Positions 451 through 18,885 of a stretch of 18,885 nt of DNA are shown piece after piece. The position numbers and the translations under genes are program-made. The DNA is from Candidatus Calditenuaceae archaeon HR02 (GTDB taxonomy: Archaea > Thermoproteota > Nitrososphaeria_A > Caldarchaeales > Calditenuaceae), in the NCBI GenBank assembly GCA_002898395.1, contig BEHE01000025.1:1-18885 (forward strand). The letters run 5' to 3'. Every line of letters begins with the position of its first letter. The stretch's first letter is position 1. The notes beneath the pieces were generated by a model that was given only the letters and a program-made list of their open reading frames with translations, did not search any database and was not told the origin of the DNA.

Positions 451-1363
451 TTATTGGGCCTGAGCACGATTCATGAATGGTTTCTTATCTCTTAGCATCG
501 CGTAGCAGCACCTCAGCAGCCTCCTGGCTAGAGCTACTGTTGCTACCCTCTCCTCTCTCCTGCCCGCTATCCTGTGATAAGCCCTAGTGAAGTGCGTGTC
601 GTACCTCCTGTGTACGTGTGCAACCTCGACCATTATCCACCTAAGCCACCTAGAGCCCTCCCTAGTTATGCTCCCCCTCCTCACCCCACCACCACTACTC
701 CTCTCAGAGGGGACTAGACCAGCGTAGCTGCATAGATGACCAGCGTCAGGGAACCTAGAGACGTCACCAATCCCGGCCTTTATCATCAATGCCGAGTACA
801 ATCCAACGCCTGGTATAGTCATGAGAAGCCTAACTTCCTCATCGCTAGAGTATTTGTCTAGCTCCCTAGACACAAGACCTATCTCCTGATTCAGGCTCTT
901 TAATACCCTTAGGTACTGGTCTATAGAGGATATGCCCTCCTCCTAACAAGCTCCCTAACCCTAGCTATCTCTCCCTCGGGTATGTAAGACATGGGCAAGG
1001 CCCCAAGCCTAGCAAGCTCAGCTAAACATTTAGAATCGCTCCTATCGCTCTTAAGCCTGTTCTCAGCGATCAACCTAGTCTTCCTTGGATGGGCAACCAT
1101 TACGTTCAAACCCATACCCCTAAGCCTACTGTACATAGGATACACGTAGCTAGAAGACTCCACAGCGACTAGAGAGACGTTTCTGCTAGAAAGGAAAGAG
1201 TAGACCTCATCCTAGGCATCCTCCTAGACTCCACCACATTACCAAGCCAGTCAACCAACGTAGCGTCGCAGCATCTCTTATGAACGTCTAAACCGCAGAC
1301 TAAACCGCTCATAGCATGCCCTGAGCGAACCTTAGAATTAAGCCTAACCCCACATCGCATCAC
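451..1363 (-). pseudogene. IS110-family transposase, disrupted (three reading frames)
   Basis: ORF 1169-1363 carries the N-terminal GLDVHK motif. ORF 921-1163 carries the rest of the DEDD domain (SDRSDSKCLAELARLGAL). ORF 451-873 carries the C-terminal Transposase_20-like domain (LLMTIPGVGLYSALMIKAGIGDVSRFPDAGHLCSYAGLVPSERSSGG). The three pieces are collinear but in different frames, so there are at least two frameshifts. Confidence 0.8.
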
Positions 1364-1940: not shown

Positions 1941-2780
1941 ATGCGGTTACTTTCTATGTGGTCTGCTGAGGTTGAGGACCTTGGTGAGCTTATATCAATA
2001 GTGTTGGAGGTCTCTTCTAGGTATGTTGGGCTGGTGGTTAAGTCTAGGGGGAGGAGGCCTTCTAGGGAGTATTTAGCTATAGTAGTTGTTAAGGAGGGGG
2101 TTAAGTGGTCTCTTAGGTTTGCGGAGGAGGAGTTGTCTTACAGGCTCTTCGGTGAGAGGGTTGATCATAGTGTTATACATTATTGGGAGGCTAGGCTTAG
2201 GGAGGCTGGTGTCCTAGAGGCTATACTGGAGGAGATAGGCAGAATTGTTGAGTCGAAGCTCTCGTACAGATACTCGGTACTAGACTGGACTGAGGTACCT
2301 ACTTGGTCTAAGGGAAGCGTTATGCTCCATGTAACGGCTAGGATATCTGAAGATACGGTGTATCCTGTTGGGGCATATGTTAGCTATGGCGGTGAGTCTG
2401 TGGCTGAGGAGGTTTTGAACGCCCTGCCCCCGGGGAGGAGGCTCCTCATGATGGACGGATACTATGACGCTGAGGATGCTATTGGGATAGCCTTCGAGAG
2501 GGGATATATCCCATTAGTCAAACCGAACACTAGGAGGGACAGGGGATACTATAGGAGGAAGTCTAGGAAGGTATTCGGAGTACTAGCCGATAACTATAGG
2601 TATAGGCCTAGGGGAGAGTCTACATTCGGATCAATAATAAACGAGTTCGGAGACAGAATAAAGACAAGGAGATACGATACAACAGCAACCAGAATAATAG
2701 CCAGACTCATAGCACACGCAGCAAAGATACTAATAAGGATAAGGAAGGTTATAACGGAATTTTTAGACACGCTCCTCTAG
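1941..2780 (+). CDS. DDE transposase (IS5/IS4-like)
   Basis: A 279-aa protein. Candidate DDE triad contexts are SVLDWTEV, LLMMDGYYDAEDAIGIAFERGYIP (the ADKGYDS-like second Asp), and YRYRPRGESTFGSIINEFG (the Y..R..vE..F..lK-like Glu region). Confidence 0.7.
   Translation: MRLLSMWSAEVEDLGELISIVLEVSSRYVGLVVKSRGRRPSREYLAIVVVKEGVKWSLRFAEEELSYRLFGERVDHSVIHYWEARLREAGVLEAILEEIGRIVESKLSYRYSVLDWTEVPTWSKGSVMLHVTARISEDTVYPVGAYVSYGGESVAEEVLNALPPGRRLLMMDGYYDAEDAIGIAFERGYIPLVKPNTRRDRGYYRRKSRKVFGVLADNYRYRPRGESTFGSIINEFGDRIKTRRYDTTATRIIARLIAHAAKILIRIRKVITEFLDTLL
2757..2775. repeat. Right terminal inverted repeat of the same IS
   Basis: See 1892-1910. This repeat lies inside the last codons of the transposase ORF. 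Confidence 0.85.
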
Positions 2781-2921
2781 AGAAATATTGGCATTAGTCG
2801 CCGAGAGTGCGGATTGCTGGTTACTCTTAGAGAGGCTGTAAGATTCTTTTTCATATCTAAGGATAGAAAAGATGTTATAACAAATTCATCGTTCTCTTAT
2901 ATTAGCTGATAACGCAGGAGA

Positions 2922-3245
2922 TTACTGCTTAGACGCTTGTGCTTCTACTAGTTTTGCTAGGGCCTGCCAGAGAGGAGCCATGTCACGCCTAAACCCAGCT
3001 ATCTCCTGAACGATCTCTGCAATCCTCTTTTCTAATGATTCGAATCTCTTATCCAGAGAATCCAATCTTGCTTCAATTCTACCTAATCTAGAGTTCATGT
3101 CGTACAGCAATATGAGCGAAGCCTCCTGGACGGTCAGCCTCCTCTTAGCGGCCTTCTCTAAGATAGCTCCTAAAACCGGCTTAATAAGGGTCTCAACCGC
3201 CACATCAACAGCCTTTTCAACCAAGCTTTCACGTATGAACAGCAT
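2922..3245 (-). CDS. Hypothetical coiled-coil protein
   Basis: A 107-aa ORF with heptad-like repeats (RLGRIEARLDSLDKRFESLEKRIAEIVQEI). A TATA-like ttttataag sits on the minus strand about 25-30 nt upstream of the ATG. Function unknown. Confidence 0.5.
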   Translation of the reverse strand: MLFIRESLVEKAVDVAVETLIKPVLGAILEKAAKRRLTVQEASLILLYDMNSRLGRIEARLDSLDKRFESLEKRIAEIVQEIAGFRRDMAPLWQALAKLVEAQASKQ

Positions 3246-3281: not shown

Positions 3282-3997
3282 GGATCTGTTAAGTTGTTAT
3301 TACTCAATCTTGATCTCTCATACTAGTCTTTTTAGTGTGTTTTTTACCCATTCTTCTTGGAATAGTATTGTTAGCTTCATCCAGCTCCATACGTGTTCTA
3401 GCACGCAGTTCTTCCTCCTACACGGAAAATAGCTATCAAATACCCTAGTCATGTCCTTTATCCTTGTGCAGATTACGCTCTCTATCACCTCGTGCATCCA
3501 GCTACCGAATCTGTATACCCTATGTTCTAGGTCTAGGCTCTTACATGCAGCCAAGTAATGACTCCCACCATCAGCATATACTTGGTGCCTCCCAAACCTC
3601 CTGACAAGCTCCCCTAGGAAATCCTCCACTACCAGCTGATTTCTAGTACGGGAGAGCCACATACCCAGTATCCTCCTGCTATGAAGAACCAAGCACTAGA
3701 ACCACCCAACCTAACCTCACTATCATCTATCACGAATAGTGATACCCTACATCTAGATGCGTAGACATTCCTGAAGCCCCATAGCCTCTTCTCCCAAAGC
3801 CAGACAGCAACATAACTCACAAAGATGAAAGGCTCTAAAGCCTTAGCGACCTTCCTAAGGCTGTTACCCAGATACCTGAGGTATAATGCATAGAGGACGA
3901 CAGGCACCAGAGTCCTAAAGACCATCAAGAAAACCCATAAACAAAGAACAAGAAAACCAGGCCATAAACAAAACAATAAAACCAACTTAACAGACCC
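3282..3997 (-). mobile_element. IS6-like insertion sequence (716 bp) with a frameshifted transposase
   Basis: The terminal inverted repeats are GGATCTGTTAAGTTG (3282-3296) and the reverse complement of 3983-3997, GGGTCTGTTAAGTTG (14/15 match). The GG..CTGTT start resembles IS6/IS26 ends. Confidence 0.6.
3318..3985 (-). pseudogene. IS6-family-like DDE transposase, one frameshift
   Basis: ORF 3629-3985 holds the HTH region and first Asp (LFVIDDSEVRLGG). ORF 3318-3692 holds the second Asp (VYADGGSHY) and the Glu region (HEVIESVICTRIKD). The two ORFs overlap in different frames. The likely true start is MVFRT at 3925, because the upstream residues translate a GT-rich non-coding end. Confidence 0.65.
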
Positions 3998-14980: not shown

Positions 14981-15356
14981 AAACCCTCTCTCCTCGAACC
15001 ATTCTAAAAATCTTTACGGGGCCGGCCACTCCGCCCAGAAACTGAAGAGGTGTTTCGGGTATTAACGTTTCCAGCCGATCTAAATACGAGACCCCCACGC
15101 GACTGCAATTATCATTGAATGTATTACCCAGGCGGGATCCATACACGTTTCCGATAGCTAGACGTAGTGGTATCTAATTACCTGAATAACACACTCTAAA
15201 CTTTCCTCGTGGAAAATAGTAACATAAAACCCCCTGTAATACGCAAAATGTAATAAAAAGAATTTAGGTTTGTGGTATTGATCACCTGCTACTCTCGGTC
15301 ATCTTCATCATTGGTATACATTAAGAAGAATATAAAACTCGGAAATAAATAATCAT

Positions 15357-16514
15357 TTATTCCATATGCCAGAGTTTTTCTAATGGATAGTTGTTTGGAA
15401 AAAGTTTGGAGATATCCCTGTCCGAGCTTGTTGGAAATGATATATTGTTCTCTGCCGTTGCGAGGAATCCAACCGTGATATAGAGGATTAGGGCTGTCCA
15501 AGTAATGGTCTGGTATAGATTTGATTTGGTCTTTGAACGTATCGAATCGCCTATTGATTCTGCTCCCTTGTATATTGCGACTAGGAACCCTGGGTATGTC
15601 AAAAATACGAACCTCGAACTTATTATTCCTATGAAATGGTCAAGAACGATGAATCCTCCTCCGACTATTAGGGATGATAGGAACAGATTATCCCTTCCCT
15701 TAGCCGATTTGCTTATATTTATTGTTGTATACACTATCAATATCCACCCGATGTGATAGGCTGCGATTATCTGGTATAGCTCCTTCAGAACTTTATCGAT
15801 GGCGAGTGAGCTTTGCAATGCCTGGTAGAAATATGAGGTATAGCCTGGTTCTGGGACTAATATGCTAGATGTTGCTAAGCCACCAGTGGCGAATATAAAG
15901 AGGATGAGGGTTTCCTTAAGCGCTTGATAAAGATTTTTGTCATTTAATATTCTATAAACGAATATGTACGCTATGCCAAGGATGCTGACTTCTCGGCCCA
16001 TAGTTGTAAAATATAATAAAACTCCGAGAAGAAGTAAAGATTTGGTTTTTTGCTTTTGATCAGTTGCTAGATATAGGATTGATGCCGCTATAGTTAGATA
16101 ACTAAGCATGTCTGTCGATATTGCGGCTCCATAAACCATTACTGGTACTGAGAAGGAAAAGAGAATCGAAACAATGGTTGCAGTTTTGAGATCATAGAGT
16201 TTTTTAATCGACAAGAAGTATAGTGTCACAGTTGTTATCCAGAGAACAGAATTAGTTAATCCAAACGCATTGTTTACACCGATGTAGCTAGATAATGTAT
16301 TAGCGGCTGCTGGCATAACTATACGCATACGGAAGGGCTGTGGCGGTGGGGCATCGACCTCACCCCTCAGCCAAAGCAGTAGATGTACGTAAAAAGGCGA
16401 GTCAAAATCTAACTTTGGGTCACCACGTACTTGGTTGGCATTCCCAAAATGGAGGATTGCGCTAATGGTAGCGAGTAGACAGACCATAATTAAAGGCTTT
16501 CTAGTATTTGTCAC
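15357..16514 (-). CDS. Polytopic membrane protein, possibly a GT-C-fold glycosyltransferase
   Basis: A 385-aa protein with about 10 hydrophobic helices. An acidic DFD motif follows TM1 (GDPKLDFDSPFY), reminiscent of the first-loop motif of ArnT/PMT-type enzymes. The functional call is weak. The gene is visibly more A+T-rich than its neighbours. Confidence 0.45.
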   Translation of the reverse strand: MTNTRKPLIMVCLLATISAILHFGNANQVRGDPKLDFDSPFYVHLLLWLRGEVDAPPPQPFRMRIVMPAAANTLSSYIGVNNAFGLTNSVLWITTVTLYFLSIKKLYDLKTATIVSILFSFSVPVMVYGAAISTDMLSYLTIAASILYLATDQKQKTKSLLLLGVLLYFTTMGREVSILGIAYIFVYRILNDKNLYQALKETLILFIFATGGLATSSILVPEPGYTSYFYQALQSSLAIDKVLKELYQIIAAYHIGWILIVYTTINISKSAKGRDNLFLSSLIVGGGFIVLDHFIGIISSRFVFLTYPGFLVAIYKGAESIGDSIRSKTKSNLYQTITWTALILYITVGFLATAENNISFPTSSDRDISKLFPNNYPLEKLWHME

Positions 16515-16926: not shown

Positions 16927-17379
16927 GTAGGTGGAGGTGGTCAAGTATTTAGTGGCGATAGGCGAAGCGAGCAGGGACGACCTTAGGATAAAGATCGGCT
17001 GCTAAGTTTCTCTTCGTGGCCTTCTCCAGGCTGTATGATATTTTGCAATAGAGTGTTTCGACAACAGCTAGGCCGCCCAAACAAATCGAGAAAAGCCCTC
17101 CGCCGCATGAAAATATGGACGGATAGCCATGGGTGAGAGCACCTCACCCCTCAAACGTTTAATAGAATCAATAACATGCTTCTCGCCCCAGAGGCCGCAT
17201 CCCCTAACCCCTAAAACCCACACACCGACACAAAACACCCAACACACCCAAGCAACCCTAGACAGTGGAAATAGACTCCACACCCAGAAACCCCCCACAA
17301 ACCATAACACCTATATTCTCAGACACACCATCTCCCCACCGAAGAGCCAACCCAGCACCAAACCAGGAAAACCCCAAAT

Positions 17380-17466
17380 GCGGCGGTGCCCTAGCCCGGT
17401 AGGGGGGTGGCCTGCTAAGCCACTGGGCCGATAAAGCCCGCGAGGGTTCAAATCCCTCCCGCCGCG
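17380..17466 (+). tRNA. tRNA-Ser (anticodon GCU), class II, no intron
   Basis: Hand-folded. The acceptor stem is GCGGCGG/CCGCCGC, with discriminator G. The D stem is CCCT/GGGG. The anticodon stem is GTGGC/GCCAC with loop CTGCTAA. The long variable arm is GGGC-CGATAAA-GCCC. The T arm is GAGGG-TTCAAAT-CCCTC. No CCA is encoded. Confidence 0.9.
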
Positions 17467-17471
17467 GGGTA

Positions 17472-17590
17472 GTTAAATTATTATAATAAGCAGGGGGAAT
17501 AAGGGGGGAGGGGCGGGTGTTCGTCTGCACTTCATCATATTCCTGCCGATACTTTTCTTCAAAATCTCACAAATCTTCCACCACTCCTTC
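17472..17590. repeat. Left arm of a 119-bp perfect inverted repeat
   Basis: Base-by-base comparison shows 17472-17590 equals the reverse complement of 18663-18781 with no mismatch. Imperfect similarity (many mismatches) continues inward to about 17675 on the left and about 18578 on the right. Confidence 0.9.
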
Positions 17591-18357
17591 CTTTCCCCTA
17601 TCTTGTCCATATAACGCCGTGTCCTCTTTATGGAGAAATCGATGAGGTATCTCCTCCTAGGTATCGATGTTCCGACCTTCTCCAAGAACCTTTGATGGTC
17701 CTCAGGATAGATATACGTCACATATACGTCATTCTTCCTCTCTATCCACATTCGCCTCTTGGGATGCCATGCTTTGCTACCCTTCTTAATCGCTAGTATC
17801 AATGGACTTGTCCTTATATCCAGCTCGGCAAGTAGCTGTCTGATATATTCGAGTAATTGGACATCGGTGTTCGCGTAGGCTGGCATCAATCCTGCGCCAT
17901 CACCGTCGAAGAAGCCTCTTAGGAATCCTAGTCTCGCCTCGGGGTCGGAGTCCATGTATTTCCGCCACTCGCCACTATCTAGCAGATAGTATGGCTCGGT
18001 TGATGTGGCGTACACTCTGTAACCACCGTCCCTGAATATTATCGACGGTCATAACCCTATCCTCCTTAGAGCCTCAGCAAATGCCTCCACAAACTCTCGA
18101 TCCCTGACACGCAACATAAGGTCTGAATTGCCCGCATGTCTTTTTCTGTTGCCATCCGATAAAACACTCCCGACAACATACCTAAACCAATAACCCTCCC
18201 TCACAACAACACTGACCCTACCTTCAGGCCTATGAGTTCCTCTACACCAGTAGCTGATTTGGCTTTTACTTAACCACACCCCGAATAATTCATAAATCCT
18301 CTCCTGAATCTTCCTATAGCTCATATCTTCCCCCTGAGCTCCAGCACCCTTTGACAC
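17473..18357 (-). pseudogene. Double-motif LAGLIDADG endonuclease-like protein with N-terminal HTH, interrupted by a single in-frame TGA
   Basis: ORF 18049-18357 holds the HTH (MSYRKIQERIYELFGVWLSKSQISYW) and LAGLIDADG motif 1 (FRYVVGSVLSDGN). ORF 17473-18015 holds motif 2 (LGFLRGFFDGDGA). The two ORFs share one frame (885 nt, 295 codons) and are separated only by TGA at 18049-18051. The likely start is ATG 18324. Confidence 0.75.
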
Positions 18358-18519
18358 ATCCTCACCCTAACTGGATATGGGAGGTAGTGCCTCTCCAAAC
18401 CCACCTCCACCTGTTCAGGGACACTTATATACCGCTTAGGCCACCCCCCTCCTACATCCACGACATGGCCTAGTCCTTAGCCTTACACCGCAGTATGGAC
18501 ACCAGACACTATAGGTTAG

Positions 18520-18780
18520 CCAATACATCCTACAAACACTAAAGTAGCTGGGGGCTATCAGGAGTTCCTCAAAACCGTGGGAACATCGATAACCAGGAAG
18601 AGATACTTCATCGAATTATCAACAAAGGCGATTCGTTACTACATGGATGAGATAAGAGAAAAGAAGGAGTGGTGGAAGATTTGTGAGATTTTGAAGAAAA
18701 GTATCGGCAGGAATATGATGAAGTGCAGACGAACACCCGCCCCTCCCCCCTTATTCCCCCTGCTTATTATAATAATTTAA
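18520..18780 (+). pseudogene. Degenerate 3' fragment of a second LAGLIDADG gene copy, in inverted orientation
   Basis: Translation ...GGYQEFLKTVGTSITRKRYFIELSTKAIRYYMDEIREKKEWWKICEILKKSIGRNMMKCRRTPAPPPLFPLLIIII parallels the C-terminus of the full gene (PEDHQRFLEKVGTSIPRRRYLIDFSIKRTRRYMDKIGERKEWWKICEIL...). Weaker, frame-broken similarity (LFRD..., SMDTRHYRLA) may extend back to about 18400. Confidence 0.6.
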
Positions 18781-18781
18781 C
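18663..18781. repeat. Right arm of the 119-bp perfect inverted repeat
   Basis: See 17472-17590. Confidence 0.9.
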
Positions 18782-18786
18782 AGTAA

Positions 18787-18885
18787 CGCCGGGGGTGGGA
18801 TTCGAACCCACGCGCCCCGTCAAGGGGCAGCGGCTGTCGCGTCGGGCCAGCATTGGTTTGATGATCTCGAGGCCGCCCCAATGGC
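18787..18885 (-). tRNA. tRNA-Ser (anticodon CGA), class II, with a 30-nt intron at 37/38; the 5' part is cut by the window edge
   Basis: Hand-folded from the reverse complement. The T arm is GTGGG-TTCGAAT-CCCAC, the 3' acceptor strand is CCCCGGC, and the discriminator is G. The variable arm is GCCCC-TTGAC-GGGGC. The anticodon stem is GCGGC/GCCGC and the loop is CTCGAG|A, interrupted by ATCATCAAACCAATGCTGGCCCGACGCGAC (plus-strand coordinates 18836-18865). The 5' acceptor strand is not in the window. Confidence 0.75.

Follow-up and report, generated by a model that had tools for sequence, protein, structure and literature searches.

The window analysed here is contig BEHE01000025.1, a metagenome contig of 18,885 bp from Candidatus Calditenuaceae archaeon HR02 that was taken whole, and close to its end a LAGLIDADG-type gene (copy 1) and the remnant of a second one (copy 2) lie between two convergent tRNA-Ser genes. 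Both copies belong to an archaeal protein family that characteristically occupies the 3′ flank of stable-RNA genes, beside tRNAs of many identities and sometimes beside the signal recognition particle (SRP) RNA gene. We consider it probable that this family is a free-standing homing-endonuclease element residing at the 3′ flank of stable-RNA genes, with a mode of action like that of the phage T4 endonuclease SegB, and that the identical ends of the two window copies are a recent patch of gene conversion.

To establish the extent of the family, relatives were collected from several sources. A search of 5.8 billion proteins returned only 13, at ~33% identity and mostly on contigs of 1.2–2.9 kb (one of 4.5 kb); in four of five such metagenome contigs, an intron-containing tRNA-Tyr(GUA) gene follows directly after the gene on the opposite strand. 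When archaeal and bacterial genomes were scanned, one for each species, 113 relatives were obtained, 80 of which were kept (loci are cited below by L numbers). Searching 1.84 billion cluster representatives with a profile yielded 218 proteins with E ≤ 1e-30, a large number being short fragments. All 80 kept relatives are archaeal, from Caldarchaeales (“Aigarchaeota”), other Nitrososphaerota, Thermococcus, Archaeoglobaceae and Methanocaldococcus, and the phyletic spread is patchy. A viral origin was considered and rejected, as no relatives were present in IMG/VR contigs.

Association with tRNA genes was counted in the 69 of the 80 loci with at least 250 nt of downstream sequence, using ARAGORN with introns allowed. 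A convergent tRNA starting no more than 130 nt from the end of the protein match was found in 44 loci, where ~0.1 would be expected from the background density of one tRNA per 37 kb in the same loci (binomial P ~2e-103); within 400 nt, the count rose to 51. On the upstream side, a tRNA within 400 nt was seen in 2 of 66 loci. ARAGORN called 25 anticodons beside family genes, a few of which, on intron-containing genes (e.g. Tyr-ATA and Ser-AGA), are unlikely to be right, leaving more than 20 anticodon types overall. Rfam added two tRNAs that ARAGORN had missed and two SRP RNA genes, and more tRNA 3′ ends could be recognized by eye. The SRP RNA genes (L047, 3236–3550, minus strand; L051, 6980–7292, minus strand) are archaeal in type and convergent with related Nitrososphaeria copies of the gene, ~220 nt past the stop codon, and the home of the family is therefore the 3′ end of stable-RNA genes in general. 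The initial annotation had entertained a homing or mobile cassette aimed at the 3′ flank of tRNA-Ser genes, to be judged by whether homologues also adjoin tRNA genes. They do: on comparative grounds a cassette tied to tRNA flanks is strongly supported and the tie holds family-wide, beyond tRNA-Ser, given the range of anticodons. A duplicated tRNA-Val in L006 was discarded as a scaffold-gap artefact. No description of archaeal LAGLIDADG genes tied to tRNA flanks was found in the searchable literature, the closest item being the paper on SegB.

Several copies per genome are common. Paralogues within a genome share 75–88% DNA identity and stand beside different tRNAs; one Caldarchaeales metagenome-assembled genome (MAG) carries them beside Thr, Pro, Ser, Ile, Met and Lys tRNAs. 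In several genomes the paralogues remain similar, in register, as far as the 3′ end of the tRNA, as do the window copies. Truncated or broken copies are frequent, both window copies included, and C-terminal remnants abutting tRNAs recur (L072, L074 and L081). A rough neighbour-joining tree contains clades linked to a single RNA and clades linked to a single genome. The former include all euryarchaeal members, which adjoin initiator tRNA-Met, and groups at Cys, Ser-GCU and SRP RNA genes in mesophilic Nitrososphaeria; the latter, with many tRNAs each, are found in thermophilic Caldarchaeales, and these genome-specific clusters suggest hopping between tRNA genes within a genome. Insertion in the style of an integrase was examined and rejected: a direct duplication of the tRNA 3′ end is missing from the far border, an att-like repeat of the tRNA 3′ end upstream of the gene was seen in only 1 of ~55 loci, and no recombinase gene lies in or near the window element.

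Presence and absence of the gene at one tRNA locus could be compared in Thermococcus, using the conserved AcnX gene beside initiator tRNA-Met as an anchor and drawing on eight further loci. At the 3′ flank of this tRNA the gene is tail to tail with it in L093, in its near-identical copy L094 (both split) and in six loci of the 80-locus set. In two complete genomes an intact gene instead runs co-directionally with the tRNA: T. indicus CP040846 (L095; gene 2191–3234, tRNA-Met 3332–3409, both on the minus strand) and T. cleftensis CL1 CP003651 (L098; gene 2208–3221, tRNA-Met 3330–3407, both on the minus strand). Here the gene starts ~100 nt downstream of tRNA-Met, the reverse of the usual layout. 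The flank holds no family gene in T. onnurineus-like and T. gammatolerans-like genomes or in T. nautili. In Pyrococcus furiosus (L099), tRNA-Gln rather than tRNA-Met adjoins AcnX, and no endonuclease match was found. With a tally of seven tail-to-tail, two co-directional and three gene-less sites, the Thermococcus flank is thus polymorphic for both the gene and its orientation within a single genus.

The copy 1 protein matches Pfam LAGLIDADG_3 at 36.7 bits, against a cut-off of 22.5, and contains two LAGLIDADG motifs in one chain (residues 49–59 and 132–145). An AlphaFold2 model (predicted local distance difference test score 77), which shows the pseudo-dimeric alpha-beta-beta-alpha-beta-beta-alpha fold of monomeric LAGLIDADG enzymes, was compared with the PDB using Foldseek. 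The top matches were all I-DmoI (E 2e-10, template modelling (TM) score 0.71); further matches were to PI-PfuI and I-Tsp061I and, more weakly, to WhiA (E 6e-6). No sequence-level relatives were detected among solved structures, nor was there any NCBIfam match. The acid at the end of each motif has been kept: Asp57 is invariant, and the position of Asp142 is Asp or Glu in every homologue. Ahead of the motifs, a three-helix helix-turn-helix (HTH) is present family-wide, its first helix conforming to (Y)LPRELRIKLYEEVxxLRxxG. The protein consists of this N-terminal HTH followed by an I-DmoI-like two-domain LAGLIDADG nuclease. The copy 1 gene stands outside any intron or intein: it has a start and a stop of its own in the interval between RNA genes, no intein flanks and no match to an Rfam intron family. 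Intact homologues exist elsewhere in the family (e.g. L058, L095 and L098).

Copy 1 extends over 17473–18461 on the minus strand, from a GTG start at 18461 to a stop codon at 17473–17475. Its open reading frames (ORFs) at 18357–18049 and 18015–17473 are one frame split by an in-frame TGA at 18049–18051. Alignment with 13 homologues places this codon at a near-invariant Arg that precedes an invariant Pro, consistent with a CGA to TGA change. Helix 1 of the HTH (YLPYPVRVRMCQRVLELRGK) is encoded in a different frame, by the upstream ORF 18461–18321, which ends ...YLPYPVRVRMCQRVLELRGKI* and whose TGA overlaps the main-frame ATG at 18324 (junction 18321–18327, minus strand); from the presence of the family's helix 1 in another frame, a 1-nt frameshift near 18325 can be deduced. 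Copy 1 is therefore a full-length pseudogene that bears two lesions, one nonsense codon and one frameshift. Its recognizable parts, all on the minus strand, are a conserved recognition-helix motif of the HTH, SKSQISYWCRG (18238–18270), LAGLIDADG motif 1, YVVGSVLSDGN, with the catalytic Asp57 (18148–18180), and motif 2, LGFLRGFFDGDGAG, with the catalytic Asp142, which is Glu in homologues (17890–17931). Copy 2, on the plus strand at 18547–18780, is the remnant of a diverged paralogue and retains only the C-terminal 77 codons. It lies head to head with copy 1, ~85 bp from the start of the latter; positions 18548–18662 are 69% identical to copy 1, and the remainder belongs to the identical repeat described below. 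Where the initial annotation had described a full-length gene with two motifs, the extent and the motifs stand and the intactness does not; its view of the right-hand copy as the 3′ end of a decayed second gene was borne out.

The two RNA genes that enclose these copies are indeed convergent tRNA-Ser genes that differ from one another in sequence, as had been noted from the DNA at the outset. The tRNA-Ser(GCU) gene (17380–17466, plus strand) is complete and intronless, with its discriminator G at 17466, and was identified by ARAGORN, by Rfam (RF00005, 57.2 bits) and by alignment. The tRNA-Ser(CGA) gene (18787–18885, minus strand; 3′ end at 18787) has its anticodon at 18867–18869 and a 30-nt intron at 18836–18865, and lacks ~19 nt of its 5′ end, which is cut by the contig end. 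It escaped both ARAGORN and Rfam because of this truncation and the intron, and was confirmed by alignment with tRNA-Ser(UGA) from two other archaea (L014 and L049), which covers the anticodon stem, variable arm, T arm and acceptor.

Between the tRNA 3′ ends lies a perfect inverted repeat of 119 bp. Its left arm (17472–17590) comprises the last 38 codons and the stop codon of copy 1, and its right arm is at 18663–18781, coordinates exactly as first reported. An arm had been placed within 6 nt of each tRNA; each in fact starts exactly 5 nt past the discriminator base, after a 5-nt spacer (GGGTA at 17467–17471 and AGTAA at 18782–18786). The abrupt loss of identity past the arms was likewise reproduced: the two copies continue in the same register and without gaps for ~115 bp further (to 17705 and 18548), at 69% identity. 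Against that background, 119 consecutive matches have a probability of ~1e-19, and the abruptness with which identity falls from 100% to 69% is best explained by gene conversion. No other inverted repeat was reported within 17000–18885. Almost the whole arm lies outside the part of the protein conserved among homologues, so that it amounts in effect to a spacer separating the tRNA from the conserved body of the gene. The initial annotation had also proposed conversion, as a process preserving a functional element within the 119 bp; the identity step agrees with the first half of that proposal, but no structured RNA was found to support the second. Folding of the arms as structured RNA or a terminator hairpin was no better than that of shuffled sequences (z-scores of +1.2 and +0.5), the first 64 nt gave a weak z of −2.7, and no Rfam family was matched.

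A repeat of this kind admits two other readings, to each of which we give little credence. In the first, the 1,072 bp between the arms form an invertible segment that flips by homologous recombination, swapping which tRNA-Ser gene abuts the long copy and keeping the arms identical. A perfect inverted identity of 119 bp suffices for homologous recombination, and both gene orientations occur at the same tRNA flank among Thermococcus species; against this, the segment neither contains nor neighbours a recombinase or invertase gene, nothing functional would be switched since both copies are dead, and inversion is a consequence of the repeat that leaves the position of the gene beside tRNAs unexplained. 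In the second, equally improbable reading, the arms come from separate loci and were joined during assembly through their shared 119 bp. The contig does break off within a tRNA gene, 104 bp beyond the right arm; family members are commonly found on very short contigs, a sign that they break assemblies; and there is a possible chimera in L065 (see below). A fold-back artefact is nevertheless excluded, because the identity does not extend into the 5-nt spacers and the tRNA genes are not the same, and the right-hand copy continues in frame as a 69%-identical paralogue to within ~85 bp of the start of copy 1. Even were the contig mis-joined, the sample would still hold the arm abutting two different tRNA-Ser genes, which is the relevant biology.

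The selection acting on the protein was estimated from Ka/Ks (the ratio of nonsynonymous to synonymous substitution rates), for which values of 0.05–0.4 were obtained; the protein is therefore under purifying selection. Values for L062/L065, which are frameshifted copies, and for L040/L064 were set aside as unusable, the latter being internally inconsistent (70.8% nucleotide identity against a proportion of nonsynonymous differences, pN, of 0.65). This selection bears on the main rival of the homing reading, namely that the family is a domesticated DNA-binding protein serving the host at stable-RNA 3′ ends and is not, or not only, selfish. The protein might, for instance, regulate in the manner of WhiA, stop tRNA read-through as a roadblock or terminator, or safeguard the integrity of tRNA genes. 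Besides the low Ka/Ks, such a role is suggested by an architecture of LAGLIDADG domain plus HTH that recalls WhiA, itself among the structural matches, by the persistence of the gene beside one and the same RNA gene in different species, its flanks having diverged equally, by the stable link to initiator tRNA-Met across Thermococcus, Methanocaldococcus and Archaeoglobaceae, and by the T-rich sequence directly after the tRNA that the element supplies. Yet the catalytic acids of both motifs are conserved, unlike those of WhiA; the HTH is N-terminal, and the Pfam model for WhiA scores 15.8, below its cut-off of 23.2. The gene is moreover multi-copy in genomes and stands beside different tRNAs, broken and truncated copies are frequent, those of the window among them, and it is present or absent among Thermococcus species within a patchy overall distribution. 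On balance, we regard domestication as unlikely.

Several findings weigh against active homing. Clean empty sites, which the initial annotation had suggested seeking, did not emerge for the window locus, the tRNA-Tyr homologues or Thermococcus. For the window, the exact 27-nt 3′ end of tRNA-Ser(GCU) was found in metagenome contigs at three unrelated loci, none of them syntenic. For the tRNA-Tyr homologues, a search by way of the upstream BrxL neighbour gave no clean empty site; the closest BrxL genes (86% DNA identity) were tried as orthologous empty sites and rejected, as they lie in other contexts, beside tRNA-Ala and with no endonuclease gene. None of the gene-less Thermococcus sites is a clean empty allele, because neighbouring genes differ too. 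About 10 of the 69 loci have no RNA gene, and the orientation is not absolute, the gene lying on the strand of the tRNA in L014, L037, T. indicus and T. cleftensis. In the pairs L028/L052, L046/L058 and L047/L051 the gene is as diverged as its flanks, a pattern that, with the purifying selection, fits long vertical residence and might point to a host function instead of active homing. The opposite pattern was seen in L062 (5621–6971) and L065 (1–1324), MAGs of different species in which the frameshifted gene and its tRNA-Ala are ~98% identical and the adjacent flank 72%. This would fit recent transfer or co-conversion, but the shared copy is already a pseudogene with a common lesion, and a chimeric assembly is possible because one of the contigs has a coverage of only 1.7×. 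In the window itself, conversion would not have been driven by the product of the resident copies, since both are defective, and the repeat lies ~100 bp from the contig end, so that the local arrangement could be mis-joined.

With these points set against it, the homing reading can be compared with systems already characterized. SegB of phage T4 is a free-standing GIY-YIG homing endonuclease encoded in the T4 tRNA cluster, and it recognizes a motif of the T-psi-C stem-loop (PMC2330249). Like SegB, the archaeal genes are free-standing endonuclease genes among or next to tRNA genes, and SegB provides a direct precedent for the targeting of many tRNA genes through their common 3′ part. The differences are that SegB is a GIY-YIG enzyme of a single locus in a phage genome, whereas the archaeal proteins form a whole family, of LAGLIDADG type and chromosomal, whose genes meet the 3′ end of the tRNA at a precise junction and are usually laid out tail to tail with it; cleavage has been shown for SegB and would be expected for the archaeal proteins. 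More broadly, the family shares with the intronless homing genes of the T4 Seg/Mob type a site outside introns and inteins and a neighbouring conserved gene as its presumed target. It would work like those genes but is not a member of the group, because its domain is LAGLIDADG and not GIY-YIG or HNH. I-DmoI, I-Tsp061I and I-PorI resemble the family in their monomeric two-motif fold (as judged from the match to I-DmoI), their archaeal thermophile hosts and their home in stable-RNA genes. They are, however, encoded inside bulge-helix-bulge introns that are spliced out of the RNA, whereas the family genes lie beyond the RNA gene and mostly on the other strand, and their proteins have an additional N-terminal HTH and ~15% identity to that group. 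WhiA combines a LAGLIDADG scaffold with an HTH as well, but is a single-copy bacterial transcription factor with a C-terminal HTH that has lost its catalytic residues; the archaeal proteins keep the acids, carry the HTH at the N terminus, and are multi-copy and decaying. Finally, SSV-type tyrosine-integrase elements of archaea also use the tRNA 3′ end as a conserved safe landing site, but the present family has neither an integrase nor an att-type tRNA repeat and consists of a single gene of ~1 kb.

Under the homing reading that we favour, the enzyme would cleave an allele lacking the element, within or beside the 3′ part of the RNA gene; as with T4 SegB, which reads the T-arm, the target would be a conserved one. 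The occupied allele would then serve as template for repair of the break, copying the endonuclease gene into the flank and leaving the essential RNA gene undamaged, and the conserved 3′ part of the RNA gene could act as homology on that side. Recognition of the shared 3′ part of tRNAs would explain the many different tRNA neighbours, the in-register junction and the absence of any disruption of the RNA gene. As for the window, copy 1 would have been inactivated recently and copy 2 would be an older paralogue, already cut down to its last codons; the 119 identical bp would be a recent conversion (break-repair) patch between the inverted copies, one side of which ends where homology ends, at the tRNA. 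A wider proposal, which we find plausible although not quite probable, is that the family represents an archaeal class of selfish one-gene HTH–LAGLIDADG cassettes that would recognize the generic 3′ part of the RNA gene (the T-arm and acceptor, or SRP RNA), insert precisely at 3′ ends, hop between tRNA genes and supply the downstream sequence, perhaps with a host role in some lineages. Such a class would be the cellular counterpart of SegB.

Other features of the spacers and of the surrounding DNA were also recorded. The arm contains a G-run motif, GGGGGAATAAGGGGGGAGGGGCGGG, at 17493–17517 on the plus (tRNA) strand, C-rich on the gene strand and mirrored at 18736–18760. A similar motif, with at least four G-tracts on the tRNA strand (C-tracts on the gene strand, in many cases with a T-run after them), is found in the spacer that separates gene from tRNA in other thermophilic family members (L007, L018, L024, L041, L062, L065, L067, L072 and L075); it occurs in 9 of 57 family spacers, compared with 0.6% of control windows, and is G-quadruplex-like in form. 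It may act at the DNA or RNA level, because it persists where the ORF ends before it, or it may serve as the terminator of the endonuclease gene. In three crenarchaeal contigs, brxL of the bacteriophage exclusion (BREX) system ends beside a convergent tRNA (L005, 1–1080; L089, 5001–6180; L090, 360–1913), which is tRNA-Tyr with an endonuclease gene between in one contig and tRNA-Ala directly in the other two. Defence islands and family endonuclease genes both gather at tRNA 3′ flanks. L001 (169–3060) differs from L005 in carrying a 2.9-kb insertion, with three unannotated ORFs, that separates brxL from the endonuclease gene.

Within the window, a 250-nt C/A-rich tract that is nearly free of G (~17129–17378) lies just upstream of tRNA-Ser(GCU), and 17001–17500 has a GC skew of −0.24 and an AT skew of +0.30. 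A low-GC block at 15000–16500 (40%, compared with ~50% around it), just before the tRNA and endonuclease region, encodes a 385-amino acid membrane protein with a weak match to PMT_2 (glycosyltransferase) and may be acquired DNA. Further away are a C-terminal fragment of an IS110-family transposase (451–873, minus strand; Pfam Transposase_20) and a 279-amino acid ORF with no Pfam match (1941–2780, plus strand).

Known homing endonucleases persist in self-splicing introns or inteins, or free between genes in phages. The free-standing type is thus familiar in itself, and what is new here is that the proposed enzymes are LAGLIDADG proteins, archaeal, chromosomal and locked to the 3′ ends of RNA genes. 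A large family parked at the 3′ ends of essential RNA genes would have found a third way of inserting harmlessly into cellular genomes. The window locus is a decayed example, and its value lies in exposing the rule that the family follows; for annotation, an archaeal LAGLIDADG gene or fragment that stands tail to tail with a tRNA can now be recognized as a family member. If the reading is correct, the family would be a source of thermostable meganucleases whose targets, tRNA genes, are conserved and can be predicted, and would help to account for the breaks in metagenome assemblies at tRNA flanks and for the fact that these flanks mark points of rearrangement. It would also provide a natural system in which to follow the shift of specificity between related targets and the turning of a selfish nuclease into a resident.

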